Assembly (NCBI GenBank): GCA_015065385.1
Contig: SVQK01000110.1
Coordinates: 150,204 to 214,203, forward strand
Reading direction: 5' to 3'
DNA length: 64,000 nt
DNA from: Oscillospiraceae bacterium
GTDB lineage: Bacteria > Bacillota > Clostridia > Oscillospirales > CAG-272
Below, in pieces: positions 47,713 through 61,576 of this stretch; the first letter of the stretch is position 1; each line of letters begins with the position of its first letter. The notes under the pieces are model-generated. The model had not been told where the DNA came from, ran no database searches, and saw only the letters and a program-made list of their open reading frames with translations. The position numbers and the translations under genes are program-made.

Positions 47713-48282
47713 TCAGCTCTGCGCCACAGGATGCCCGAGCTCGTCGTACTGTTCTCTGAGATACTGGCCGATCCACATGAGAACGTCGGGTTCGGACAGC
47801 GGGATCTCTTCGCCGAGAGTCTCGCGGATGGCTGCGCAGGACAGCTCCACCGTCCCGTTCGGGAAGATGTGGTTGAACGTGAAATTCACGTCCGGCGCGC
47901 CCTGAATCAGCGTCTTGATCGTCTCCACGATATCGCCGAGCGGGATGAAGTCGATGTGGTTCTTTCCGAACTTGGCTTCGGTCTTCGTCCCGTGATGAGG
48001 GGAGACGGATTCATGTACGGAGGTGACGGTGACGAATCCTCCCGTCATTTCCGCCAGCATGGTGAGGAAGGGGATCCCGAGTCCCACCTTCCGGGTCTTC
48101 CGGGTGGTGAAGAAGGGATCGGTCAGCTTTTTCAGCTGTTCCTCCGTCATGCCGCAGCCGTTGTCCTCCACGGTGAACCAGAGCCATTCGCCGTCTTCCC
48201 GGAGGGTGATGGTGATTTCCGTGGCGCCGGCGCGGACGGAGTTCATGGTAATGTCAAGGACATACAGGGAGAGCTCATCCAT
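47713..48282 (-). CDS. Stand-alone histidine-kinase-like ATPase (HATPase_c) protein
   Basis: The N-box is ITMNSVRAG, the G1 box is DNGCGM, and the G2 box is GLGIP. There is no DHp/His domain. Confidence 0.8.
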   Translation of the reverse strand: MDELSLYVLDITMNSVRAGATEITITLREDGEWLWFTVEDNGCGMTEEQLKKLTDPFFTTRKTRKVGLGIPFLTMLAEMTGGFVTVTSVHESVSPHHGTKTEAKFGKNHIDFIPLGDIVETIKTLIQGAPDVNFTFNHIFPNGTVELSCAAIRETLGEEIPLSEPDVLMWIGQYLREQYDELGHPVAQS

Positions 48283-49042
48283 GGTCTTCTTCTCCTTTCC
48301 CGGGCTGTGTTCTGCCCAGAAGATAGTCGATCAGCCGATTCCGCACCAGAGCGGAGGAATAGGGCTCGTCGTCCAGAGCGATGGAGAATCCGCCCTCGGA
48401 GATATTCCAGAGGTAGTGCGCGTCGGAGGACACCACGCGGGGCAGATTCCGCACAACGGGGTATTTCTCGCGGTACTCCGCCTCGTTGTTCCCGTCGTTC
48501 AGTTCGAACGCCGTGAAGGGCGGGGATTCCGGAACGGTACCCAGCACCGCGACGATCCCGTTTGCGGGGCGGTCGATGTGGGCGGGATAGGCGACGCCTC
48601 CTCTTGCCAGCACCTCCCGGTACGCGTCCTCCAGCGTGAGGTCCGACGCGTTGATCAGAAGGTACGGTTCCTCGGAAACGATCTCGTCGTTTTCGTCCCG
48701 GACATACTGGTGTCCGAAGATATCCGGCTTGTTCCTGATCTTCGGCCGGTGCTCCGAGACATAGGCGTCGAAGGCCATCGCGTCGTCCAGCGTCCGGAAG
48801 AGGCAGATCACATGGATATCCTCCGCCGTGGTCAGCTCCATCCCGGCGACCGGAACGATGCCGTACCGCTTCGCCTGGCTGAAAAAGGCGGGGCAGTTTT
48901 TCGATGTATTGTGATCGGTGAGCGCGACGAGCATCAGACCGTTCAGGGAGGCCATGCCGGCGATGTTGCCGGGGGTCATATCCTCGTCGCCGCAGGGGGA
49001 CAGACAGGAATGGATATGCAGGTCGCAGACGTATTCGGTCAT
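48275..49042 (-). CDS. PHP-domain phosphoesterase
   Basis: CDLHIHSCLSPCGD and LTDHNT are PHP metal-binding motifs. Confidence 0.85.
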   Translation of the reverse strand: MTEYVCDLHIHSCLSPCGDEDMTPGNIAGMASLNGLMLVALTDHNTSKNCPAFFSQAKRYGIVPVAGMELTTAEDIHVICLFRTLDDAMAFDAYVSEHRPKIRNKPDIFGHQYVRDENDEIVSEEPYLLINASDLTLEDAYREVLARGGVAYPAHIDRPANGIVAVLGTVPESPPFTAFELNDGNNEAEYREKYPVVRNLPRVVSSDAHYLWNISEGGFSIALDDEPYSSALVRNRLIDYLLGRTQPGKGEEDHG

Positions 49043-49377
49043 GCCCGGCCGCGGGAAGCTTCGTAGATCGCCGCGCAGAGCTCGAACACCGTATGCTTCG
49101 AGGAAAGGACGATGATCCCGTTGTCCTCGGCGGCGTCAAGCGCGTCGGGAAGAAGCTCCACGCCCTCCGCGAGAATGACGGCGGCAGCTTCGGTGAGCGA
49201 GGCCACGGCGACGACGTTCGCGTTCGGCATGATGGTGATCCAGAGGTTGTCGGCCTTGACGTGGCTCATGGCCCGGCTGAGCAGGTCGCCCGCGTAAACG
49301 CCGCGCCATTCCCTGCCTTCGGTGGAGCCCGAGACGGTTTCGAGACCGAGACGGGCGGACAGCTCGGTTAAGTTCAT
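49039..49377 (-). CDS. DRTGG domain protein
   Basis: I trimmed to the ATG at 49377, which forms an ATGA overlap with the upstream gene. The 112-aa product contains AGDLLSRAMSHV and NANVVAVASL. Confidence 0.75.
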   Translation of the reverse strand: MNLTELSARLGLETVSGSTEGREWRGVYAGDLLSRAMSHVKADNLWITIMPNANVVAVASLTEAAAVILAEGVELLPDALDAAEDNGIIVLSSKHTVFELCAAIYEASRGRA

Positions 49378-50765
49378 TCCGCTTCTCCTTCCGGCGTCTT
49401 TTCGGATGCCTCGCCGGGAGCTTTCCCGTCCTGGCGCGCTCCTTTTGCGAAGGCGGCGTCGGAGGCCAGCTTGTCGAGTACGGATTTTTCCTTGTGCTCC
49501 GCCAGATAGCGGTGGAACAGCATCTTCATGATGACGGTGCACTCGTCGGCCGTGGCTTCCCCGCGGACGATATCCTCCGCGAAGGCCATGCAGGTGGGCG
49601 CGCCGCAGGAACCGCAGTCGATCCCGGGCAGACTTTCCTTGATGGATTCGATCTCGCTCATCATCTGCCTTGCGATCCGCCTGTCCTCGGATAGGAGGTG
49701 CGCCGGGGTGTACTCGATGGAATTCTCGTTGAAGAACTCCGTCGGGATCCACTCGGAGGCGGGACGGTTGGGAGAGACGGGGAGATAGCGTTTCAGTGCC
49801 TGAAGTCTGGCCTGCGCGATGTAGGGGTTCGCCACGGTCATGGCGCCTCCCACGCAGCCGCCGTCGCATGCGTTCAGCTCCACGAAGTCCAGACTCGTGA
49901 TGTCCTCGTTGTCGATCTGATCGAGGACGCGGATACAGTTTTCGATCCCGTCTGCTGCAAGATAGCGCTCGTTGAAGATGGCCGTGGCCTCTCCTCCCGT
50001 GGTCGCCCAGCCGATGCCGATCATGCCGGATTCGGTGGTCTCGAGAGGTTCGTCCTCGCGCTTCTTCATCACGTCGAGAAGGGCGAAATACACGTCGCGG
50101 ACGGACACCACGTCGGTGATGTAGTTCCGTTCGCCGGCGAAATCGTTCTTCACATAGCTGACCTTGGCGGGACAGGGGGAAATAAAGACGATGCCGATCT
50201 CTTCCTCCTTCAGCTCGGGGAACCGCGCCTTCGCCTGTTCGTGCGCGAGGAACGCGGCGATATCCACGGGCGGGAGGATGGGCATGACGTTTTCGATGAG
50301 AAAGGGGTAATTCATCGAGATCATGCGGGAGATGGTCGGGCAGGCGGAGCTGATGACGGGCTTCTTCACGTCGCTGCGCTTGATGTACAGGCGCGTGTAG
50401 GCGGAAACGAGCTCGGCGGCGCAGGCCACTTCGAACACGTCGTCGAAGCCGAGATCCTTCAGTCCGCGGATGATGTAGCCGATGTTGTCCATATGGTCGA
50501 ACTGGCCGTACAGAGACGGAGCGGGGAGGGCGACCTTGTATTTGTACTTTTCAAGGCAGGAGAGCGAATCGTGGACGGCTCTCTTGGCCTTGTGCGGGCA
50601 CACCTTGATGCACTCGCCGCAGTCGATGCACTTGACCGGACTGATGACGGCGTGCGCGTCGCGGATACGGATCGCCTCGGTTGGGCAGCGTCTCAGGCAG
50701 GTGGTACAGCCCGTACACTTGCCGACGTCCAGCGAGACCGAATGTTTATAATCTGCCATAATCAC
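49374..50765 (-). CDS. HydS-like (sensory-type) [FeFe]-hydrogenase homolog without a PAS domain
   Basis: The N-terminus has 2x[4Fe-4S] motifs (CTGCTTCLRRCP and CIDCGECIKVCP). The H-domain-like motifs are SSACP (L1 with the first Cys replaced by Ala), SPCPAK (L2) and NACDGGCVGG (L3). The C-terminus has CGSCGAPTC...DEC. Confidence 0.8.
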   Translation of the reverse strand: MIMADYKHSVSLDVGKCTGCTTCLRRCPTEAIRIRDAHAVISPVKCIDCGECIKVCPHKAKRAVHDSLSCLEKYKYKVALPAPSLYGQFDHMDNIGYIIRGLKDLGFDDVFEVACAAELVSAYTRLYIKRSDVKKPVISSACPTISRMISMNYPFLIENVMPILPPVDIAAFLAHEQAKARFPELKEEEIGIVFISPCPAKVSYVKNDFAGERNYITDVVSVRDVYFALLDVMKKREDEPLETTESGMIGIGWATTGGEATAIFNERYLAADGIENCIRVLDQIDNEDITSLDFVELNACDGGCVGGAMTVANPYIAQARLQALKRYLPVSPNRPASEWIPTEFFNENSIEYTPAHLLSEDRRIARQMMSEIESIKESLPGIDCGSCGAPTCMAFAEDIVRGEATADECTVIMKMLFHRYLAEHKEKSVLDKLASDAAFAKGARQDGKAPGEASEKTPEGEAE

Positions 50766-50837
50766 CTCGCTGAGCCGGAGCGGTTCTCCCGGTCGGAGAA
50801 ACCGGTCGCGGGATGGTCGTAGACGGAGGATCGCCGA

Positions 50838-51260
50838 TCAGAGATCGACCGTCATGGTGATAGTCGTGCCGACGCCCACTTCGGTGTCGATCTTCATATC
50901 ATCGGTGTATTTCTTCATATTCGGAAGGCCCATGCCCGCTCCGAAGCCGAGGGCCCGGATATTGTCGCGCGCGGTGGAATAGCCTTCCTGCATGGCGAGC
51001 TCCACGTTCGGAATGCCGGGGCCGTGGTCCGCGAGGATGATGACGATCCTGTCGTCGTACACCTCGACGTCGGCCGCTCCGCCGTTCGCGTGGATCACCA
51101 TATTGATTTCCCCTTCGTACATGGCGATGGATACCTTGCGGATCACATCCGGGGGATAGCCGAGCTGTCTGAGCTTCTTCTTCACCGCTACGGACGCTTC
51201 GCCCGCGGAAGTGAAGTTTTCGCCGTCAACGTCGTAGTGGAAACGGATGGGCTCAGACAT
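50838..51260 (-). CDS. RsbW/SpoIIAB-like anti-sigma-factor-type Ser/Thr kinase (HATPase_c)
   Basis: The 140-aa product contains EGEINMVIHA, DHGPGIP, and GFGAGMGLPN. Confidence 0.8.
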   Translation of the reverse strand: MSEPIRFHYDVDGENFTSAGEASVAVKKKLRQLGYPPDVIRKVSIAMYEGEINMVIHANGGAADVEVYDDRIVIILADHGPGIPNVELAMQEGYSTARDNIRALGFGAGMGLPNMKKYTDDMKIDTEVGVGTTITMTVDL

Positions 51261-51606
51261 CGGCTCCCTCCCTGCCGAGACCGGCGTAGTAGAGGACTCC
51301 GCTCGCTTCGTACGCGCGCAGGGGGGACCGCATCAGGACGAGTCCGTGTTCCCGGGCCAGCTCGATCATCTCTTCCGTGGGAACCTTGTTCCGCACGATC
51401 ACGATGCAGACCATGTCCATCATGTTGGCCGTGCGGATCACCTGAGAATTGAGCAGACCCGTGAGCAGCACGCCCTGATCCTTCACGAAGGCCAGAACGT
51501 CGCTCATCATGTCGCTGCAGCAGGCCGCGAAAACGTCGTTTTCGAGACATTCTTCGCCGCTGAGCACCTCGGCTTTGAGAAGTTCCTGAATTTCAGCTAT
51601 TTTCAT
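51253..51606 (-). CDS. DRTGG domain protein (second copy)
   Basis: The 117-aa product contains CCSDMMSDVLAF and LLTGLLNSQVIRTA. Its 3' end overlaps the next gene by 8 nt. Confidence 0.75.
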   Translation of the reverse strand: MKIAEIQELLKAEVLSGEECLENDVFAACCSDMMSDVLAFVKDQGVLLTGLLNSQVIRTANMMDMVCIVIVRNKVPTEEMIELAREHGLVLMRSPLRAYEASGVLYYAGLGREGADV

Positions 51607-51723
51607 TGTCTGATCCGTTCGGGAAGCGCGCCGGATCCGGGAACGCCGGTCCTTCCGCTCTCCCCTTCCTGCCTTTCACAGGTTGTCTGCCCGAAGGCGT
51701 GATAGCGGTAGGGCGGGCCGGGT

Positions 51724-52218
51724 TCAGTTGTATTTCGCCAGAATGTCTTTCAGCATGCTGGGATCCAGTCTGCCATAGACGTCTTCGCCGACGGTCATGA
51801 CGGGAGCAAGGCCGCACGCGCCGATGCAGCGGGTCGCGTCGAGGGAGAATTTCAGATCGGGCGTGATGCCGCCGGGCTGGATCCCGAGCATTTCCTCGAG
51901 CTTCTCCATGATCTTACCGGAGCCTTTGACGTAGCAGGCGGTGCCAAGACATACGCTGACCGGATTCTCGCCCTTCGGATTGAGCTGGAACTGGGCGTAG
52001 AAGGTGGCGATGCCGTAGACCTCGGAGAACGGGATGCCGAGGGCGAGGGCGATGTGGCGCTGGACTTCCTCGGGCAGGTAGCCGTAGATGTCCTGAGCCT
52101 TCTGAAGGATGGCGAGCGTCGCGCCGGGCTCGGTCTTGTTCTCGTCAATGACGCGGTCAAGCTCGGCGAGCTGTTCGGGCGTGCCCTTGAAGGGAACGGA
52201 AGTCATGACTTTTTTCAT
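51724..52218 (-). CDS. hydC: NuoE-like [2Fe-2S] subunit of bifurcating-type hydrogenase (HydC/HndA)
   Basis: The 164-aa product contains VSVCLGTACYVKGS and ATRCIGACGLAPV. Confidence 0.93.
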   Translation of the reverse strand: MKKVMTSVPFKGTPEQLAELDRVIDENKTEPGATLAILQKAQDIYGYLPEEVQRHIALALGIPFSEVYGIATFYAQFQLNPKGENPVSVCLGTACYVKGSGKIMEKLEEMLGIQPGGITPDLKFSLDATRCIGACGLAPVMTVGEDVYGRLDPSMLKDILAKYN

Positions 52219-52272
52219 GGGGATAAGAACCTCCTCAGGAGTATGATAAATAAATTTGAAAAAACGGGTCGC

Positions 52273-53109
52273 TTATTTTTCGCAGAACGCTTCGATCTGA
52301 TCGGCGGCTGCTTCGAGGTAGTCGTTTTCCATCAGTTCGACGACGCCGCGGTCCACGAGAGCCGAGAGCTTCGGATCCACGGGCATTCTGCCGAGCAGCG
52401 GGATGCCGAACTTCGCCGCGGTCTCCTCGGCCTTGGATTTGCCGAAGATTTCGATTTCCTCGCCGCAGCAGGGACATTTCACATAGGACATGTTCTCCAC
52501 GAGCCCGATCACCGGAATGTTCATGAGAGCGGCCATGTTGACGGCCTTCTGAACGATCATGGAGACGAGATCCTGCGGGGTGGTGACGATCACGATGCCG
52601 TCGATGGGCAGGGACTGGAAGACCGTCAGCGGGACGTCGCCGGTTCCGGGCGGGCAGTCGACGATCATATAGTCCACGTCACCCCAGAGCACGTCGGTCC
52701 AGAACTGCTTGACGGTTCCGGCGATGACCGGTCCGCGCCAGACCACGGGACGGGTTTCGTCTTCAAGGAGCAGGTTGACGGAAATGGTCTTGATGCCGGT
52801 TTTGGTTTCAAGGGGGATGAGTCCGTCCCCTTCGCCGATCAGGATATCGCCCTTCACGCCGAACGCCTTCGGGATGGAGGGGCCGGTGATGTCCGCGTCC
52901 ATGAGCGCGACGGAGAGATCCCGGCGTTTCAGGGTGACGGCCAGCATGGAGGAGACAAGGGACTTTCCCACGCCGCCCTTGCCGGACACGACGCCGATGA
53001 CGTGGCGGATGCGGGTACCTTCTCTGGGCGCTTCCTTCTCGGGAGCGCGCGAGGGACAGTTCTCGCCGCAGGTGGAGCAGTCGTGGGTGCAGTTGGTGGT
53101 ATCGGCCAT
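52273..53109 (-). CDS. Mrp/NBP35 (ApbC-like) Fe-S cluster carrier ATPase
   Basis: I trimmed to the ATG at 53109. The N-terminus is CTHDCSTCGENC, the P-loop is SGKGGVGKS, and there is a CPCCG motif. Confidence 0.9.
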   Translation of the reverse strand: MADTTNCTHDCSTCGENCPSRAPEKEAPREGTRIRHVIGVVSGKGGVGKSLVSSMLAVTLKRRDLSVALMDADITGPSIPKAFGVKGDILIGEGDGLIPLETKTGIKTISVNLLLEDETRPVVWRGPVIAGTVKQFWTDVLWGDVDYMIVDCPPGTGDVPLTVFQSLPIDGIVIVTTPQDLVSMIVQKAVNMAALMNIPVIGLVENMSYVKCPCCGEEIEIFGKSKAEETAAKFGIPLLGRMPVDPKLSALVDRGVVELMENDYLEAAADQIEAFCEK

Positions 53110-53181
53110 AATACAGAATTCCTTTCGCTTGCGGTCGCGCCTTGGAGCGTTCCGCGGGTGTTCGCATGATAGTCTCAGGAT

Positions 53182-53210
53182 ATTATAGTACATTTCGCTC
53201 CGAATTACAA
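53182..53210 (-). promoter_or_regulatory. Promoter for the mrp gene and probably the hyd operon
   Basis: On the minus strand: TTGTAA at 53210-53205, a 17-nt spacer, then TATAAT at 53187-53182. Confidence 0.6.
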
Positions 53211-53340
53211 GAGATTCGAGACGAAAGACGGCGAAAAAATCGCAAAAAAATCGTGAAAAAAGATCAGAATTTTCTCTTTTTAACAGTTTTCAACACACAA
53301 GATCAGTGGGTATTGAACCCAAACGCGCCGTTCGGAACAG

Positions 53341-53382
53341 AAAAAACGCCGCATGCCTCCCCATCGGAGAAGCGTACGGCGT
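53341..53382 (-). terminator. Intrinsic terminator after the P-type-ATPase-like gene
   Basis: On the minus strand, an imperfect long hairpin ACGCCGTACGCTTCTCCGATGGGGAGGCATGCGGCGT is followed by TTTTTT. Confidence 0.6.
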
Positions 53383-53402
53383 CCGTAAATCAAAATCAGC
53401 AA

Positions 53403-56246
53403 TCAGTGTTTTCCGCGCAGCTTCATGAGTTCCACGGCGGCAAGGGTCGCCGCGGCGGGAATCAGCGCGCAGAGCCCGGCGGGTCCGCAGGGAGTTCCGC
53501 CCGAAACAGCCGCGCCCGAGTCCGTGAAGAGCGTCCAGACGGCGAAAAGGCCGGAAATGATTCGGAACAGGAGCTCCGCCGTGAGCACCGTCCTCGGTCT
53601 GGCCGGATCCGCCTTGAAGACGCTCCCGCGCCGTCCGCATTCCGCCGCGATCACAAGTCCCGTCAGGATCGCGGTTCCGGAGAAGAAGGCGCGCAGATCC
53701 CCCGCCCCGCCGAAGGAGGCGAAGAGGGGCACGGAGGGCAGAAACCGTCCCGCCAGCAGCGATCCGAGAATGAGCAGCCCGCCCCAGACAACGCCCGTAA
53801 GGGACGCCGCAATCATGGCGGATTTCTCCGTTTCCGCTCTGCCTTCCGGCTCTGCTGACACGTCGGTCTCCGATCCGCGCCCGAACGCCCGGACCAGCAC
53901 GGCCCCGAAGTCGAAGAGAAGTCCCCAGATCAGCACGAATACGGCGGACGGCAGAGGGATCGCCCCGAGAACCGCCGCGATCAGAAGGAGCAGCCGCGCG
54001 ACCTGTGCCGCGATCAGATAGAACCGGATCCGGGCAACGTTGACGACGGCACATCTGGCGTATCGGACGGCTTCCGCGGCTCCGGACAGACCGCCGAATC
54101 CCGCTTCGGTTCCGCCGGTCTCCGGGTGGATCACCACGGCGGCGCCTCTTGCGATGGATTCCGGGACGGCGCGGAGGCGGGATCCCGATGCGGCAAATCC
54201 CACATCGGAACGCCCGAGAGCCCCGGCGTCCCACGCCTCCATGCCCATCGCGGCGACGATCGGGCCTTTTTCGGCGGAGAAAGTTCCTTCCCCTTTTCTG
54301 CCGGCGGACGATGATCCGATCTTGGCGGAGGCGTCCCGGCCGGCGATCAGGGAGGTCATGGCGCCCGCGTATGCTGTTCCGAGGTAGGCGTCTCCGATGG
54401 CGTCGAACGCCACGAGCACTCCGGACTTGTCCTTCTCCGCGAGGATCCTTCCGGCGGTCGGAGCGTCGAACTGAGCCGCTGGATACGGGCGGGTGGTTCC
54501 GTCGAAAAGGCCGAGGCGCATGCCGTAGAAAAGGTCGGCCTCCGGATTCTCCGTGAAGAGGATCGGCCTGACGCCGGTCTTTTTGAGATAGTCCACGTTC
54601 TCGCGGGCGTTCTTTTCCGGCTCCATGGAGAGCGCGAAATACCCCACGAAATTCATCGCCTGCGTCAGAACCGCCAGGCGGTTGAGATGGGGGTAGGGGC
54701 TGATCCTCCGCGCCACGGCGAGAACCCGTGCCCCGCGCGCTTCAAGTTCCGCGGCTTCCGCAAGGATCTTTTCCGTCAGCGCGGAGTCGAGCGGAAGAAG
54801 ACCGGATCCGGTCTCGACGGCTCCGCAGCACAAAAGGATATCCCGCGCCGTTCCGCAGGCAGCCGCCCAGACCGCGCCCTCCCGCTCGCACAGGGAGATT
54901 TCCAGCCCGACCGCAAGACGGTCGGAGGAATCCCGGTGATCTCCGACGGCATAGGCGGGGGGAAGGCTCCGGCCGAACTGCTTGGAATAGGCCTCCGCGG
55001 CGAGGGTAACGAGATTGGCCCTCTCCCGCGTTTTATGGGATACGGGCGTTTTCTTTCCGTTTCCGGCAAGGCCCGTCTGCTGGGCCGTCTGCGTCGTCGC
55101 GGCAAGGGCGAGGGAGAGCAGCTCTCCCGGATCCCTTCCCCTCTCATCCGCTCCGATGGCGACGTCGCCGAGCCGGTAGGCCAGAATCTCCGCCTGTCCG
55201 GATTTGAAGAACGAGGAGCCGCAGAAGACCAGCGCGCCGGACGCCGCCACGTCTTCGATTCTTGTGGGATCGCGGAAGAGGATCCGTCCGCATCCGGGAT
55301 TCTCCCGCGCGCTGGCGGCCTTTCGGACGGTGACGGCGACGATGATCGCGGCGATGGTGGAGATGAACTCGCTCATGGACGCCACGGCCATAGCCATGCC
55401 GCTGAGGAAGACGTCCGGAAGGGCGATCCCTCCTCCGGTCAGCACGGCCAGCCCGGACAGGAGCATGACCGCTGCCAGCATGAAGAGGCTCACGGCGCGG
55501 CTCTGCCGTCTCAGGCGTTCGACCAGAGGAAAGTCCCGGTCCGCCTCGATGGTCACGCCGTCCTGCTTCATGGAGATCAGGGTGTCGTCTCCGCAGGCTG
55601 TTGCGGCGATGCGGACCGAACCGGACAGCACGAGGGATCCGGCGAACAGCATGTTGGAGCGGAACTCGCAGGGGACTTCCCCACTGTCGGCATCGGTTGC
55701 GATAACCGTTGCGAACTTATGGACAGGGCGGTCGTTGGAGGTGATCCCGCGTTCGCTCACCACGGAGTCGTCGCCGGTAATGACCCGCCCGTCGCAGGGA
55801 ACGGTGTCCCCCGGTTCCAGAAAGATGATGTCGCCGGGAACGATCTCATAGGCGGGTAGCAGATGGACCCGGCCGTCCCGGATCACGGATCCGACGGGGA
55901 TGCGGGAACGCGCCATATCCTCGAGAATGCGGTTGGCGCGGACGCTCACGATCGTCCGGACGGCAGCCCCGATCAGAAGCACGGCGGCGATGGCTCCGGC
56001 TTCGAAGCGCTTGTCGAACACGGCTGCTGCTGCGGCGGCGATGACCAGAAGCAGCGTGGGAAGATCAAATAGCGCGGCGGCGGCGGCTTCCCACGCGGAG
56101 GTCCGGCGAACATGCCAGACTTCTCCCCGGAGGCGCCGCTTCCGCTTTTTTGCCTCGTCGGCGGTGAGGCCCCGGTACATGTCGGTTCCGAGCGTCCGGA
56201 GCACCTCGTCGGCAAGGAGCAAATGCCATGTGTTGGAAGAAATCAT
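53403..56246 (-). CDS. P-type ATPase homolog (type II-like architecture) with degenerate catalytic motifs
   Basis: The 947-aa product has a Cation_ATPase_N-like start (GLTADEAKKR), an actuator-like block (PGDIIFLEPGDTVPCDGRVI) and about 10 TM segments. The catalytic motifs are degenerate: DKTGT reads GSSFF, TGES reads VSER, PEGL reads SEFI, TGD reads TENP, and GDGxND reads GMEAWD. Confidence 0.85.
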   Translation of the reverse strand: MISSNTWHLLLADEVLRTLGTDMYRGLTADEAKKRKRRLRGEVWHVRRTSAWEAAAAALFDLPTLLLVIAAAAAAVFDKRFEAGAIAAVLLIGAAVRTIVSVRANRILEDMARSRIPVGSVIRDGRVHLLPAYEIVPGDIIFLEPGDTVPCDGRVITGDDSVVSERGITSNDRPVHKFATVIATDADSGEVPCEFRSNMLFAGSLVLSGSVRIAATACGDDTLISMKQDGVTIEADRDFPLVERLRRQSRAVSLFMLAAVMLLSGLAVLTGGGIALPDVFLSGMAMAVASMSEFISTIAAIIVAVTVRKAASARENPGCGRILFRDPTRIEDVAASGALVFCGSSFFKSGQAEILAYRLGDVAIGADERGRDPGELLSLALAATTQTAQQTGLAGNGKKTPVSHKTRERANLVTLAAEAYSKQFGRSLPPAYAVGDHRDSSDRLAVGLEISLCEREGAVWAAACGTARDILLCCGAVETGSGLLPLDSALTEKILAEAAELEARGARVLAVARRISPYPHLNRLAVLTQAMNFVGYFALSMEPEKNARENVDYLKKTGVRPILFTENPEADLFYGMRLGLFDGTTRPYPAAQFDAPTAGRILAEKDKSGVLVAFDAIGDAYLGTAYAGAMTSLIAGRDASAKIGSSSAGRKGEGTFSAEKGPIVAAMGMEAWDAGALGRSDVGFAASGSRLRAVPESIARGAAVVIHPETGGTEAGFGGLSGAAEAVRYARCAVVNVARIRFYLIAAQVARLLLLIAAVLGAIPLPSAVFVLIWGLLFDFGAVLVRAFGRGSETDVSAEPEGRAETEKSAMIAASLTGVVWGGLLILGSLLAGRFLPSVPLFASFGGAGDLRAFFSGTAILTGLVIAAECGRRGSVFKADPARPRTVLTAELLFRIISGLFAVWTLFTDSGAAVSGGTPCGPAGLCALIPAAATLAAVELMKLRGKH

Positions 56247-56308: not shown

Positions 56309-58594
56309 TCATTCCGCGCGGAGCACGACGCCCTCTCCGGACTCCGGCGCGTCGATGACGAGGGAATCGAGCTTTCCGCGGCGTTCCACGAGAAGGCCGG
56401 CGATCTTGTCCTCGATCTCGGTCTGGATGAAACGGCGCATATTGCGGGCTCCGTACTTGGCGGAATAGGATTTTTCCGCCACATAGTCCCGCGCCGCGTC
56501 GGTGAAGGAGGCTTCGATGCCCTTCTTTTCGAGGATCGAGACCAGATCGGCGAGCATGAGGGCGGCGATCCCGCGGAAGTTCTCCGGCGTCAGGCTGTTG
56601 AAGGTGATGATCTCGTCCACCCGGTTGAGGAACTCGGGGCGGAGGAAATCCTCCAGCGCGCGCTTGGTCTTGTCCTCGGTCATTCCCTTCGGATTGGAGG
56701 TGAAGCCGGGCTTGTTCTGAGCATAGGTGGATCCCGCGTTGGTGGTCATGACGATGATGGTGTTGGTGAAATCCACCTGCTTGCCGTGGGAATCGGTGAT
56801 GATCCCGTCGTCGAGGATCTGAAGCAGGATGTTCATCACGTCCGGATGGGCCTTTTCGATCTCGTCGAAGAGAACGACGGAATACGGGCGGCGGCGGATC
56901 TTCTCGGTGAGCTGTCCCGCGTCGTCGTAGCCGACATAGCCCGGAGGCGATCCGATGATGCGGGAGACGGAGAACTTGTCCATATATTCGCTCATGTCGA
57001 GGCGGATGAAGGTCTCGGGAGAGGAAAACAGATCGTTCGCCAGCACCTTGACCAGCTCTGTCTTTCCGACGCCGGTGGGGCCTGCGAAGATGAAGGAGAC
57101 GGGCTTTCTCTTGTAGGAGACGCCGGTCCTTCCCCGTCTGACGGCGCGGGCCACGGCCTCGACGGCTTCGTCCTGACCGACGATGCGGGCGCGGAGCCTC
57201 TCTTCCAGCTTCTCGAGCTTTTCGTATTCGCTCTCGGCGATGGTGGACGCGGGAACGCCCGTCCAGATCTCGATCACGTCGGCCAGATCGGACTCTTTCA
57301 TGCGGATATTGCCGCAGAGCTCGTCCAGATAGCGCAGTCTCTTGTCGATGCGCATTTCCTCCGCCTTGAGGTCGGCGAGCTGCTTGTACCGCTCCTCCGC
57401 CGCGTCGGGATCCCCGGAGGTCTCCGAGTTGATCGCGTTCTCGAGGTCGGTCTGCTCCTTCTGCACCTCCACGCGGCGGTCGGCCAGCTCGTGGCGCTCC
57501 CCGATCTCGGGGGAATGAACCGCGATGTGGGCGGCGGCTTCGTCGATCAAATCGATGGCCTTGTCGGGCAGATAGCGGTCGGTGATATACCGCTCGGAAA
57601 GCGCGGCGGCGGATTCGAGCAGGGCGTCCGCGATCTTCACGCCGTGGTAGTCCTCGTAGTACGATTTGATGCCCTTCAAAATCTCCACGGTGTCGGAGAC
57701 GGAGGGCTCGTTGACCATGACGGGCTGGAAGCGGCGTTCGAGGGCGGTGTCCTTTTCGATATACTTCCGGTATTCGGTGAGCGTGGTCGCGCCGATGACC
57801 TGAATCTCGCCCCGGGAGAGCGCGGGTTTCAGAATGTTCGCCGCGTTCATGGAGCCTTCCGCGTCGCCGACTCCGACAATGTTGTGGACTTCGTCGATGA
57901 CGAGGATGACGTTTCCCTTTTCCCGCACATCGTTGAGCAGGCCGAGCACCCGGCTCTCGAACTGCCCGCGGAACTGGGTCCCGGCTACGAGCGCGGTCAG
58001 ATCCAGAAGGCAGACGTCCTGATTTTTCAGCTTGTAGGGGACCTCTCCGGCGGCGATGCGCTGGGCAAGGGCTTCGGCGATGGCGGTTTTGCCCACGCCG
58101 GGTTCGCCGATCAGACAGGGGTTGTTCTTCTGGCGGCGGGAGAGGATCTGCACCACGCGCTCGAGCTCCCGGTCGCGTCCGACGATCTTGTCGAGCTTGC
58201 CTTCCTTCGCGCGGGCGGTGAGGTTGGTGGTATAGGTGGAGAGATATTTATACTCCGGCTCTTCCTCCGCTCCGTCCTGCTGCTCCTTCTTTTTCTTCTC
58301 CTTTTTGCGGTTTTCGCCCATCATTTTGGAGAAGTTGAAGAGGGGCGCGCGGCTGTCCTGATTCTCGGAGGCTCCGGGAAACTCGCCGCTCTCCATCATG
58401 GCCTGCATATCGCTGTTGAAGCGGTCGATGGTTTCGTCGTCCATGCCGGTCTGGGCAAGGATGTCGTCGATGGGCTTGATCCCCAGTTCCTTGGCGCACT
58501 TGACGCAGAAACCCTCCTGGGTGTCCGCGCCGTCTTTCAGGGTCCGGAGGAAGATTACGGCCACGCGTTTGTGGCATCTTGAACACATGATCAT
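56309..58594 (-). CDS. ClpA/ClpC-type double AAA+ unfoldase with an N-terminal zinc-ribbon-like domain
   Basis: Walker A motifs are GEPGVGKT and GPTGVGKT. A coiled-coil linker joins D1 and D2. There is a PGF loop. The N-terminus has CSRC...CVKC in place of Clp_N repeats. Confidence 0.9.
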
Positions 58595-58671: not shown

Positions 58672-59397
58672 TTATTTGAGCACCTGCGTCAGAAAGGCAA
58701 GCGGATTGTGTTCGACGAGGAACCGGCAGAGGATGGTATTGTCCACGGCCTTGTCGCCGAACCACGACGGATCGAACGCGCCAAGCGCGCGGACTCCGGC
58801 GTCCAGCACCAGCGCAAGCACGGAGACGAGAACGAGGCCTTCGACCGCTCCCACGAGGAAGCCGAAGAACATATTCGCGCTGTTCAGCACGGGCATCCGG
58901 AAAACGGCGTCGAGGATCGCGGTGAGAATGCTCATGACGAGGAACGCGCCGATAAAGATCAGGGCGAAGGAAACGGCGTGCGCGAGGGCGGAGGCGGTGG
59001 GATAGGCCAGCCGTTCCGAGAGGTTGCGAAGGGAGGTCCCGTCCGCTCCGGTGATCCCGCGCATGACCTCCGATACGGAATCGACGCTCACATGGTAGCG
59101 GTCCAGAAGATCGGTAAACCATCCGGGGAGATTCGCAAGGGTGGCATCCAGATCGAAAAGATCCGTGGTGGTGTCGAGGGAGGCGTGAAGGATGCCCTCG
59201 ATGTCGCTCACCATCCGTCCCGCTAAAAACTTTTCCTCAAAGAAAGGGGCGAGGGTCGGGGTAAACGCATAGGCCGCGAGCGCGGATACGGCGGTGTTGA
59301 TCAGCCCCATGACGGAGCGCACGAAGCCCCGGCGTGTTCCTGCCCAGATACAGAACACTGCTGCGAAAATCAGAATGGCGTCGATGGCCAGTTCCAT
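58672..59397 (-). CDS. cvpA: CvpA family membrane protein
   Basis: The 241-aa product has four TM segments. The N-terminus, DAILIFAAVFCIWAGTRRGFVRSV, is typical of CvpA. Confidence 0.8.
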   Translation of the reverse strand: MELAIDAILIFAAVFCIWAGTRRGFVRSVMGLINTAVSALAAYAFTPTLAPFFEEKFLAGRMVSDIEGILHASLDTTTDLFDLDATLANLPGWFTDLLDRYHVSVDSVSEVMRGITGADGTSLRNLSERLAYPTASALAHAVSFALIFIGAFLVMSILTAILDAVFRMPVLNSANMFFGFLVGAVEGLVLVSVLALVLDAGVRALGAFDPSWFGDKAVDNTILCRFLVEHNPLAFLTQVLK

Positions 59398-59482
59398 GGC
59401 ACACCCTCCTTAAAATAGGTTGTTCTGCGCGTTTGCGTTCGGATAAATCAAATCAGCTCGGGACGAGGGGGAAAATCCCCGC

Positions 59483-60694
59483 TCAGTCATCGGCAAAGAT
59501 CTGCCAGGCGGCGGCCTTCTGACAGAGAAGCGCGCCCGAGGACAGGGGAACGACGCCGATGATCTCTCCGGAATCCGGGGCGTAGGATTCAAAGGATCCG
59601 TCCGCGCGCATGCGGATCACGGAGTCGTTGGTGCGGAGGTAACAGACGGCGTCGGAGGGATTGCGTCCCATCGTCACGCCCGCGATCCGCTGGCGAAGCA
59701 CCTCGTCGCAAAGCGTGGATCCGTCGGAATCGAGGACGAGGATCCGGTGCTCGCTGCCGAGGGCGTTGACCTGCCCGACCATGGCGACGCGACCGGACAG
59801 GATATCGGCGTATTTTAAGGTCATGCCGGCCAGGGACACGGTCTTCTGCCGCACGCCGTAAGTGTCGTAATAATGGACGGCGGAATCGCAGAGTACCACG
59901 AATCCGCTCTCCGTCGCACGGGCCATGAGGGGCATCGCGTGACTCAGGATATCGGTGGTCAGGGGCGTCTCCTCCCCCCGCCTGCACACCTCGATCTCAC
60001 AGTCGAAATCCGTGGAGGACGGGACGGCGGAGGCCACAAGGAACTGTTCCCCGTCCCCGGAGATGGCGGCGGCGAGGACGTAGCTGTCCTTATAGTTGAG
60101 CATCGTCTGATTGAACGCGGCGTTGTACAGGCTGACGACATACCGCGTGTCCCTCGACCGGGTGACCATCACGAGGGATCCGTCCGAGGCGATATCCGCC
60201 GCGATGATCCGCTCGTCGCTCTCCCGCGAGACGATGCCGGTGAGCTGGTTGTACACCGCCCATCCGGTCCCGCCGAGATCGAAAAGCAGCATGTACTTCT
60301 CCCCGGGTACGAGGACGGGATCCGACCAGTTCAACGGATCCGAGATGACGGACAGGCCGTTTTTGTCGAAATAGCGGTAGCTGTCCGGTCCGCAGACGGA
60401 GAGGCCGCCCCGGAACCAGGCGAAGGTCGTGTCGGAGGAACCGTTGTAGACGATCCGTCCGAAATCTCTCGCGCTCTCGTCGGCGGCGGTCCCGAAATCC
60501 CGGACCAGATAGCTCAGGTTTTCGGTGGTGATGGAATCGGAGGCAAACACGATCACGCCCCCGAGATAGACGAGAAAGAGGAACAGCGCGGCGATCCCGG
60601 CGGCGGTGTAGCGTTTGGCGATTCTTGCGTAGTAGCGGTTGACCTCGGGCTCGATCTTCCCGGCCACGGCCAGCCGCTTTTCCTTCTGGGGCAT
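59483..60694 (-). CDS. Membrane-anchored hypothetical protein, beta-propeller-like (possibly DUF5711)
   Basis: I chose the ATG at 60694 because it has an AAAGGAG RBS 9 nt upstream; the track start is 60730. There is one TM segment, AAGIAALFLFLVYLGGVIVFA. The family assignment is from memory. Confidence 0.7.
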   Translation of the reverse strand: MPQKEKRLAVAGKIEPEVNRYYARIAKRYTAAGIAALFLFLVYLGGVIVFASDSITTENLSYLVRDFGTAADESARDFGRIVYNGSSDTTFAWFRGGLSVCGPDSYRYFDKNGLSVISDPLNWSDPVLVPGEKYMLLFDLGGTGWAVYNQLTGIVSRESDERIIAADIASDGSLVMVTRSRDTRYVVSLYNAAFNQTMLNYKDSYVLAAAISGDGEQFLVASAVPSSTDFDCEIEVCRRGEETPLTTDILSHAMPLMARATESGFVVLCDSAVHYYDTYGVRQKTVSLAGMTLKYADILSGRVAMVGQVNALGSEHRILVLDSDGSTLCDEVLRQRIAGVTMGRNPSDAVCYLRTNDSVIRMRADGSFESYAPDSGEIIGVVPLSSGALLCQKAAAWQIFADD

Positions 60695-60769
60695 GGGCGC
60701 GTTCTCCTTTCCGTCTGAATGGTCATTCATCCTGATTGTATAGATGGGACGCGGCGGATCCGGCTCCGC

Positions 60770-61576
60770 TCACAGGCATTTCCACCCGATCGGCCTGCCG
60801 TAATCGACGGAGGCGAGGCAGAGTCCGTGCGCGGGGGCTGTTCTTCCCGCCCTTGACCGGTCTCTCGCTTCGAGCACGGCGGGCAGCTCGTCCGGATCCA
60901 TCGTACCCGCGGCGCAGTCCGCCAGCGTTCCGGCGATAATGCGGACCATGTGGTAGAGAAATCCGTCCGCGGACACGGTCAGCTCGATGGAATGCGCTCC
61001 GGTCCGCTCCACGGTCAGGACCTTCACGGTGCGCCGGGCGTCTGTAATTTTCGATCCGGCGGCCATGAAGGAGGAGAAGTCCCTCTCCCCCGGGATGAAG
61101 GAGGCCGCGCGGCGCATCCGCTCCATGCCGTCTTCGCTCACGGGCTTCGGAAGCTGCCACGCAACCGCCGCGGTGAAGGGATCCCGCCACGGAGCGTCCG
61201 TCATGCGGTAGAGGTAGGTCTTTCCGACGGCGGAATACCGGGGGTGAAAATCGTCTTCCACGGCTGCTTCCCCGGCAATCGAGATGTCCGGGGGCAGAAA
61301 GCGGTTCATCGCCCGGTGGACCTTCCCGACCGGGATCCGGAGCCAGCTGTCCGGGGAGTTCCCGTCGTACGGTTCCACGGCCGCGCAGAATCCGGAGGCA
61401 TGTACGCCCGCGTCGGTACGGCTGCAGCCTGTGACGCGCATCGGTCTCCCGAAGCATTCGGAAAAGGCGGCGGTCAGGGTGCGCTGGATCGACGGCTTCG
61501 GCGCGGATTCGTCGTCCTGAGCCTGATAGCCCGCGTATCCGGTCCCGACGAACATGAGTTTCAAGAGGAGCTTCAT
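60770..61576 (-). CDS. truA: tRNA pseudouridine(38-40) synthase TruA
   Basis: FVGTGYAGYQ is present. CSRTDAGVHA carries the catalytic Asp. The gene lies downstream of ecfT, as in many Firmicutes. Confidence 0.93.
   Translation of the reverse strand: MKLLLKLMFVGTGYAGYQAQDDESAPKPSIQRTLTAAFSECFGRPMRVTGCSRTDAGVHASGFCAAVEPYDGNSPDSWLRIPVGKVHRAMNRFLPPDISIAGEAAVEDDFHPRYSAVGKTYLYRMTDAPWRDPFTAAVAWQLPKPVSEDGMERMRRAASFIPGERDFSSFMAAGSKITDARRTVKVLTVERTGAHSIELTVSADGFLYHMVRIIAGTLADCAAGTMDPDELPAVLEARDRSRAGRTAPAHGLCLASVDYGRPIGWKCL

Follow-up and report, generated by a model that had tools for sequence, protein, structure and literature searches.

The locus described here lies in a window of 64,000 nucleotides, the whole stretch of DNA that was analysed, taken from an Oscillospiraceae bacterium (assembly GCA_015065385.1, contig SVQK01000110.1, positions 150,204 to 214,203). 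On its reverse strand, directly downstream of a gene for a ClpE-type AAA+ unfoldase, the window carries a gene for a 947-aa degenerate homologue of P2A-type ATPases, which we call pATP. P-type ATPases are defined by their phospho-aspartate, and it is this residue, together with the other catalytic signatures, that pATP has lost. The coding sequence starts with ATG and has no internal stop, and its translation bore out the intact frame reported in a preliminary description of this DNA, made from the sequence alone. The gene and the elements within it are listed below, with window positions, strand and the evidence used.

53403..56246 (-): pATP coding sequence (open reading frame, or ORF, and translation; PF00690 and PF00122; LMCA1 profile match; AlphaFold2 (AF2) and Foldseek)
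55512..55901 (-): actuator (A) domain, aa 116-245, the most constrained part of pATP (PF00122; regional ratio of nonsynonymous to synonymous substitutions, dN/dS)
55731..55742 (-): T169-S-N-D172, counterpart of TGES (three alignments)
55362..55373 (-): S292-E-F-I295 in M4, counterpart of PEGL (alignments, AF2)
55209..55223 (-): C342-G-S-S-F346, counterpart of DKTGT (MAFFT, hmmsearch, hhalign)
54843..54857 (-): C464-G-T-A-R468 in the N-like domain, counterpart of KGAxE, with the ATP-binding Lys gone (MAFFT, family counts)
54546..54554 (-): T565-E-N567, counterpart of TGD (alignments)
54228..54245 (-): G668-M-E-A-W-D673, counterpart of GDGxND, with the first Asp and the Asn gone (alignments)
54090..54095 (-): G718-G719, invariant and family-specific 'GG(F/L)' hinge before M5, in place of the canonical DDNF (alignments)
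53994..54005 (-): Q748-V-A-R751 in M5 (family counts)
53910..53924 (-): G775-L-L-F-D779 in M6 (family counts)

A complete P-type fold

Pfam recognised only the Cation_ATPase_N domain (PF00690, aa 7-72) and the actuator/M1-M4 block (PF00122, aa 120-312, E 1e-27); no match to the HAD P-domain, PF00702, was found anywhere in the protein. P-type models of NCBIfam matched the first ~310 residues only, far under their cut-offs: TIGR01494 scored 40.2 for a cut-off of 62.3, and the best subfamily models reached about 87 bits for cut-offs of 610-800. When the single pATP sequence, which is very rich in Ala, Gly, Leu and Arg, was searched against PDB chains, the Listeria Ca2+-ATPase LMCA1 came out on top, over aa 24-312 only.

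Profiles extended the homology to the whole protein. Positions 17-910 of a family profile (A1, an alignment of 87 pATP family members, to which all counts out of 87 below refer) align to LMCA1 residues 14-877 with an E of 1e-70, and the hhalign comparison of A1 with a profile of 29 canonical pumps gave a probability of 100 and an E of 1e-75 over 868 columns. The AF2 model built from the family alignment (predicted local distance difference test, pLDDT, 89.7; predicted template modelling score, pTM, 0.89) has ten membrane helices, in keeping with the roughly ten counted earlier, and its M4 helix is interrupted at residues 291-294, as in genuine pumps. In Foldseek its top matches were all full-length P2-type pumps, the best superposition being with human SPCA1 in the CaE1 state (8iwp, TM 0.76/0.80), followed by LMCA1 in the E1-Ca state (9evc, TM 0.64/0.70). 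The A, P and N domains and the ten-helix M domain are colinear with those of P2 pumps. We conclude that the P-type fold is kept in pATP, and that the type-II architecture first proposed for it was correct.

The closest relatives of pATP are the P2A Ca2+-ATPases, namely Listeria LMCA1 (lmo0841; PDB 6zhf, 9euq and 9evc), the B. subtilis YloB type, and human SPCA1 (8iwp). It shares with them the order Cation_ATPase_N, A domain, M1-M4, P/N insert and M5-M10, the A-domain core RDG...VPGD...GD.VP.D.R, and the M4 Glu and M6 Asp of the Ca2+ site. Unlike them, it has TGES, DKTGT, KGAxE, DPPR, TGD and GDGxND all replaced and no HAD match in Pfam, and it differs further in the membrane site (M4 Pro to Ser, M5 Asn to Gln, Arg at the E771 position, M6 Asn to Gly) and in the change of DDNF to GG(F/L). 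Canonical P2A relatives, again unlike pATP, are not linked to clpE.

Catalytic motifs and the former ion site

Three alignments, independent of one another, gave the motif registers: a MAFFT alignment that included canonical pumps, a match of the family profile to LMCA1, and an hhalign comparison with the canonical profile. The position of the phospho-Asp is occupied by C342 (codon 55221-55223), the whole segment is devoid of Asp, and neither the profile nor the profile-profile alignment places an Asp or a KTGT there. The preliminary description was thus right in reporting the loss of the Asp, and wrong in its register, as it had put Ser344 in its place. In the close family, the position holds Cys in 73 members, Ser in 5, Gly in 5, Met in 3 and Val in 1, and it is Pro or other residues in other subclades. 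Because it varies in this way, no replacement nucleophile is maintained, and C342 as an alternative nucleophile was rejected for lack of conservation across family and subclades.

A second register had to be corrected. The sequence VSER, earlier equated with TGES, is V163-S-E-R166 and matches the V-(D/S)-E-(S/A) that canonical pumps carry six residues ahead of TGES; the true counterpart is T169-S-N-D172, in which the catalytic Glu has become N171. Both T169 and N171 are found in 87/87 members, and the invariant residues of the A domain include R123, G138, G146, D152, T169, N171, P192, E194, R196 and N198. The other assignments made earlier, SEFI for PEGL, CGTAR for KGAxE, TENP for the region of TGD and GMEAWD for GDGxND, were recovered in the alignments. 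The Lys of KGAxE is C464, the FxSxxK segment with its adenine-stacking Phe is not conserved, and DPPR reads M-E-P-E. The counterparts of TGD and GDGxND, motifs of Mg2+ and phosphate ligands, vary within the family.

The two corrections do not rescue catalysis. Set beside the catalytic P-type (HAD-IC) family, pATP lacks the DKTGT Asp, the TGES Glu, TGD/GDGxND and the N-domain site, and it stays below the thresholds of the NCBIfam models. As judged from the alignments, every motif for phosphoryl transfer and nucleotide binding has been lost. It is very probable that pATP can neither be phosphorylated nor hydrolyse ATP by the P-type (HAD) mechanism, and that it is a non-phosphorylating pseudoenzyme kept by selection.

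In the membrane, losses and retentions are mixed. The M4 Pro is gone (S292, Ser in 82/87), and the ion-gating Glu is kept (E293, SERCA E309, 84/87); the M4 signature 'SMSEF' is common to the subclades, with the Glu retained in all except one clade. In M5 (signature 'YL..SQ.ARL'), Q748 stands at the position of SERCA N768 (82/87) and R751 at that of E771 (85/87), a charge reversal in ion site I, and this Gln/Arg pair is conserved in most subclades. In M6 (signature 'GL.FDF'), D779, the equivalent of SERCA D800, is present in 87/87 members and invariant across all subclades. Residue by residue, E309 and D800 of the Ca2+ site are kept, and N768, E771, N796 and T799 have become Q748, R751, G775 and F778, so that the ion site appears remodelled. 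Conservation in pATP lies in the A domain, in M1-M6 and in a charge cluster within the membrane, formed by E293, Q748-R751 and D779.

In SERCA, E771 and D800 co-ordinate one and the same Ca2+ ion. One would therefore expect an Arg in place of E771 to pair with D779 and E293, with R751 serving as a cation built into what was once the Ca2+ site. A positive charge built into the ion site is known from P3A H+-ATPases (R655/D684 in AHA2, and Pma1) and from the H,K-ATPase (a Lys in M5). The pair R751/D779, if the two residues are in contact as presumed, would be analogous to the basic M5 residue facing the M6 Asp of these pumps, which, unlike pATP, are fully catalytic and which are not its nearest sequence relatives.

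Selection, relatives and the clpE junction

When one genome per GTDB species was scanned, 44 pATP loci were obtained, all of them in metagenome-assembled genomes (MAGs) from rumen or gut that belong to uncultured Oscillospiraceae, 'Ruminococcus sp.' or Clostridia. The ORF is complete (884-1014 aa) in 40 of the 44, and 3 more are cut only by contig ends. In the remaining locus (L030:9100-9520), unrelated AT-rich sequence breaks the orthologue at about aa 345, where the phosphorylation segment used to be; the break lies 270-400 nt from the contig end, and a chimeric assembly or the insertion of a mobile element could explain it.

Ratios of dN/dS were calculated by the Nei-Gojobori method on genome pairs with dS of 0.33-1.2. 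They were 0.09-0.23 for the whole pATP gene, 0.03-0.13 in most pairs for the A domain and M1-M4, 0.07-0.33 for the degenerate P/N region (with one outlier at 0.54), and 0.12-0.38 for M5-M10. All regions of pATP are under purifying selection. For ClpE in the same genome pairs, the ratio was 0.03-0.09, and pATP is therefore less constrained than its neighbour, yet clearly selected. With its catalytic residues lost and its gene intact, widespread and under purifying selection, pATP has the marks of a pseudoenzyme that is maintained rather than decaying, as had been suspected; elevated dN/dS and disrupted orthologues, which would have indicated decay, were looked for, and purifying selection and intact orthologues were found instead. 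The GC content of the gene (65-67%) is above that of its neighbours (58-63%; window 53500-56000).

The family is not confined to these loci. Further clades of 880-1256 aa, all without DKTGT, TGD, GDGxND and PF00702, came from a second search that started from P0106, a relative with 25% identity. An exhaustive search of 1.84 billion representatives (50% identity) was then made with a superfamily profile (A4), a hidden Markov model, and the best 150 representatives were assessed; all scored at least 449 bits and 130 were new. Among them, leaving aside fragments below 800 aa, all but 8 were without every motif. The 8 were canonical pumps, with DKTGT and GDGVND, which appeared from rank ~130 onwards at 450-480 bits. 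No intermediate, with the Asp kept and other motifs lost, was present among these best 150, which is consistent with one ancient loss. pATP thus belongs to a superfamily that is large and old and whose members, found in uncultured Clostridia (Oscillospiraceae and 'Ruminococcus'-like MAGs), are dead in a similar way. The nearest canonical relatives (P0107, P0114 and P0343) do not adjoin clpE; with these pumps located elsewhere, and no intermediates among the best 150, an origin in situ from a clpE-linked working pump was not supported.

Some subclades are longer, with 150-350 extra residues after the pump-homologous part (P0134, 1256 aa; P0127/P0128, 1175-1209 aa; P0259, 1286 aa; the P0106 clade, 1077-1102 aa), and the profile match in these stops at about aa 920-940. 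A more divergent clpE-linked homologue without DKTG (L095:6566-9346) scored 284 bits with the superfamily profile and 146 bits with the canonical one, and the family therefore probably reaches beyond the range sampled.

Two further features belong to the transcription unit:

56309..58594 (-): ClpE-type double-AAA+ unfoldase, 761 aa, upstream partner of pATP (Pfam, zinc ribbon, gene order)
53338..53384 (-): intrinsic terminator, hairpin and U6, at the end of the clpE-pATP transcription unit (sequence and fold)

ClpE, which has been described in Lactococcus and Bacillus, is an Hsp100/Clp AAA+ protein whose N-terminus forms a zinc-binding domain. The window neighbour resembles it in its CxxC...CxxC N-terminus, two AAA+ modules, D2-small domain and GF-containing loop at the ClpP-docking position. 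Its Pfam matches are AAA, AAA_lid_9, AAA_2 and ClpB_D2-small, with no Clp_N, and the N-terminal zinc ribbon (including ...C.KCAKELGI) is conserved in all loci. NCBIfam holds no curated ClpE model, and the assignment as ClpE-type was made because of the zinc ribbon and the absence of Clp_N. The preliminary description had placed a ClpC-like unfoldase 62 nt upstream on the same strand; the distance was exact (stop 56309, start 56246), the type was not. In one locus (L053), a separate ClpC with Clp_N lies ~6 kb away, so that the ClpE-type gene is a distinct paralogue. The 'xGF' loop is conserved in all loci, as K-P-G-F in the window copy; compared with the canonical (I/L/V)-G-(F/L) ClpP-docking loop, its first residue varies (P/A/V/L/T), and binding of ClpP is only putative. 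The protein also has a low-complexity, acidic and lysine-rich linker at aa ~50-115.

The gene clpE was directly upstream of pATP in 38/38 GTDB loci having upstream sequence, and also in 8/8 divergent subclades with 23-28% identity (L046, L052-L057, L059/60). The adjacency is kept despite a pgsA-like gene or a 3.5-kb insert between cvpA and clpE, and the genes downstream of pATP differ among subclades (a mrp/hydrogenase-like cluster, PFK, MscL, RDD/FHA, or rpsB-tsf). In most loci, fewer than 60 nt separate the clpE stop from the pATP start, and values of -4, -1 or 0 also occur. The 62-nt gap of the window copy showed no terminator-like site. The terminator that had been proposed after pATP was found (hairpin 53384-53344 on the reverse strand, -27.9 kcal/mol, z = -4.4, then U6), and a promoter-like TTGTAA-17-TATAAT precedes mrp. 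No structured RNA or riboswitch was found in the window at Rfam gathering thresholds.

The reverse question was addressed by scanning metagenome contigs with an alignment of the ClpE zinc ribbon (A6). The locus truA-(DUF5711)-(cvpA)-clpE is widespread in these contigs. pATP follows clpE in 11 loci, whose ClpE proteins are 59-90% identical to the window copy; it is absent from ~22 more distant clostridial loci having at least 3 kb of downstream sequence, with ClpE 54-61% identical, and in one case (L079) mrp comes directly after clpE. ClpE therefore does not need pATP, and an obligate two-way co-occurrence of the two was rejected. These data fit a scenario in which pATP was acquired once, behind a housekeeping clpE, and the junction was strictly kept thereafter.

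The surroundings deserve a few remarks. With or without pATP, the clostridial order is ecfA-ecfA-ecfT-truA-DUF5711-cvpA-clpE (window 58672-61576, reverse strand; L046, L053-L057, L059, L061-L140), and in L056 and L059 a CDP-alcohol phosphatidyltransferase gene sits between cvpA and clpE. Downstream of pATP, behind its own promoter-like site, the window has a conserved cluster (48275-53193, reverse strand) encoding a Mrp/NUBPL-type P-loop protein, a NuoE-like 2Fe-2S thioredoxin-like ferredoxin, a HATPase_c protein, a [FeFe]-hydrogenase-like protein (Fer4 + FeS), and DRTGG and PHP proteins; the whole resembles a sensory or regulatory hydrogenase module. The DRTGG ORF (49039-49869) overlaps the hydrogenase-like ORF (49374-50765) by ~500 nt, and its true start is therefore probably further downstream. 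An anti-phage defence system was also considered and discarded: PADLOC gave no match for pATP and only generic AAA+ matches for ClpE.

What a pump without chemistry may do

Our preferred explanation, which we advance tentatively, is that pATP is a maintained, non-catalytic membrane pseudoenzyme that works with ClpE. It descends from a P2A (LMCA1/SPCA-like) Ca2+-ATPase and retains the complete A/P/N headpiece and ten-helix membrane fold, and it would serve as a non-enzymatic membrane component whose core is the A domain, M1-M6 and the buried E293/Q748-R751/D779 cluster. This cluster could fix or change the pump-like state of the protein, responding not to ATP but to protonation, cations or voltage. 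As the partner of the ClpE(-ClpP) machine with which it is co-transcribed, pATP might then act, for instance, as a membrane-anchored adaptor, regulator or docking platform for membrane protein quality control. Functional coupling of the two is plausible on genomic grounds; that the role of pATP is linked to ClpE is the part of this proposal that we hold with the most reserve.

Several points weigh against it. The evidence for the link to ClpE is gene order, and the adjacency could reflect one ancestral insertion simply kept in an operon. pATP is missing after clpE in the ~22 loci mentioned above, and its rate of evolution is 2-4 times that of ClpE, whereas a tight obligate partner would not usually diverge so quickly. 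The contact between R751, D779 and E293 is modelled on homology to SERCA sites I/II, residual nucleotide binding or a non-HAD activity may be compatible with the sequence, and all members are known from uncultured organisms.

The alternative that survives best, though we consider it rather unlikely, is that pATP is an autonomous non-catalytic membrane protein, merely co-transcribed with clpE, which might sense cations or protons, let ions pass passively (as a leak or uniport) along the old ion site, or have a structural part in the membrane. This reading would account for the retention of E293 and D779, for the conserved Arg at the E771 position and for an M4 still unwound at the site in the AF2 model. 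ClpE without pATP in related loci and the faster evolution of pATP point the same way, as do the housekeeping surroundings (ecf-truA upstream, rpsB-tsf or mrp downstream), since long operons may explain the adjacency. Yet clpE-pATP is the only junction never broken across at least 8 deeply diverged subclades, both flanks being rearranged, and the overlapping stop and start codons found in some loci suggest translational coupling. Moreover, the cytoplasmic headpiece, ~60% of the protein, is under purifying selection, and a pure channel or sensor would have no obvious need of it.

A stronger form of the preferred explanation, in which ClpE and the dead pump make up a dedicated two-component membrane machine, pATP providing a conduit or docking headpiece and the AAA+ motor the energy, seems to us improbable. 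If it existed, such a machine might extract or degrade membrane proteins, or let its AAA+ motor gate the passage of ions or protons, and the P-type pump body would have been re-used in a new way.

Even less probable is that pATP is still an energy-using transporter, with another nucleophile or nucleotide site, or with E1/E2-like movements driven in trans by its AAA+ neighbour. The full pump architecture, the conserved A domain, the preserved Asp and Glu of the ion site and the obligate adjacency to an ATP-driven motor would suit such a transporter, but no former active-site residue is conserved across subclades, the Asp position, TGD, GDGxND and KGAxE all drifting, and the Arg at the E771 position would fill the cation site. 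To our knowledge, P-type transport driven by an AAA+ protein has no precedent. Finally, a decaying Ca2+-ATPase relic, or an artefact of assembly or annotation, is scarcely credible: the low identity of pATP across loci (31-62%, against 70-93% for ClpE), its GC somewhat above that of its neighbours (65-67% against 60-62% in this comparison) and the interrupted L030 orthologue would be in keeping with decay, but the 40 intact full-length ORFs in independent species genomes and the dN/dS of 0.09-0.23, with the dead domains constrained too, led us to reject it, and ~130 clusters at 50% identity, all of full length, and a confident AF2 fold from the family alignment speak against it as well.

The nearest conceptual precedent for pATP is the P4-ATPase module of alveolate guanylate cyclases (P4GC; Cryptosporidium, GC-beta), in which the DKTGT Asp and the A-domain Glu are altered in some lineages, and which is retained, needed and discussed as a possibly non-catalytic module (PMC13466520). 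That module is eukaryotic, of the P4 (lipid flippase) type, fused to a cyclase and altered in some motifs only; pATP, in contrast, is a stand-alone bacterial P2A derivative with all motifs gone. Our literature search returned no report of a bacterial dead P-type ATPase and none of ClpE paired with a P-type ATPase homologue, and a term search of a recent broad P-type ATPase review brought up no inactive or pseudo members. The pATP family is a real and conserved family of pseudo-pumps that is apparently undescribed.

Where the proteins of this family have a name in MAGs from gut and rumen, it is 'cation-transporting P-type ATPase' or 'Ca2+-transporting ATPase', which is almost certainly wrong as a basis for transport predictions. 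This clade keeps the whole pump body, drops all of its chemistry and places an arginine in the cation site. It thus serves as a natural experiment that shows of what use the P-type scaffold may be once ATP is no longer involved, be it in sensing through its conformation, as a scaffold or as the partner of an AAA+ protease.

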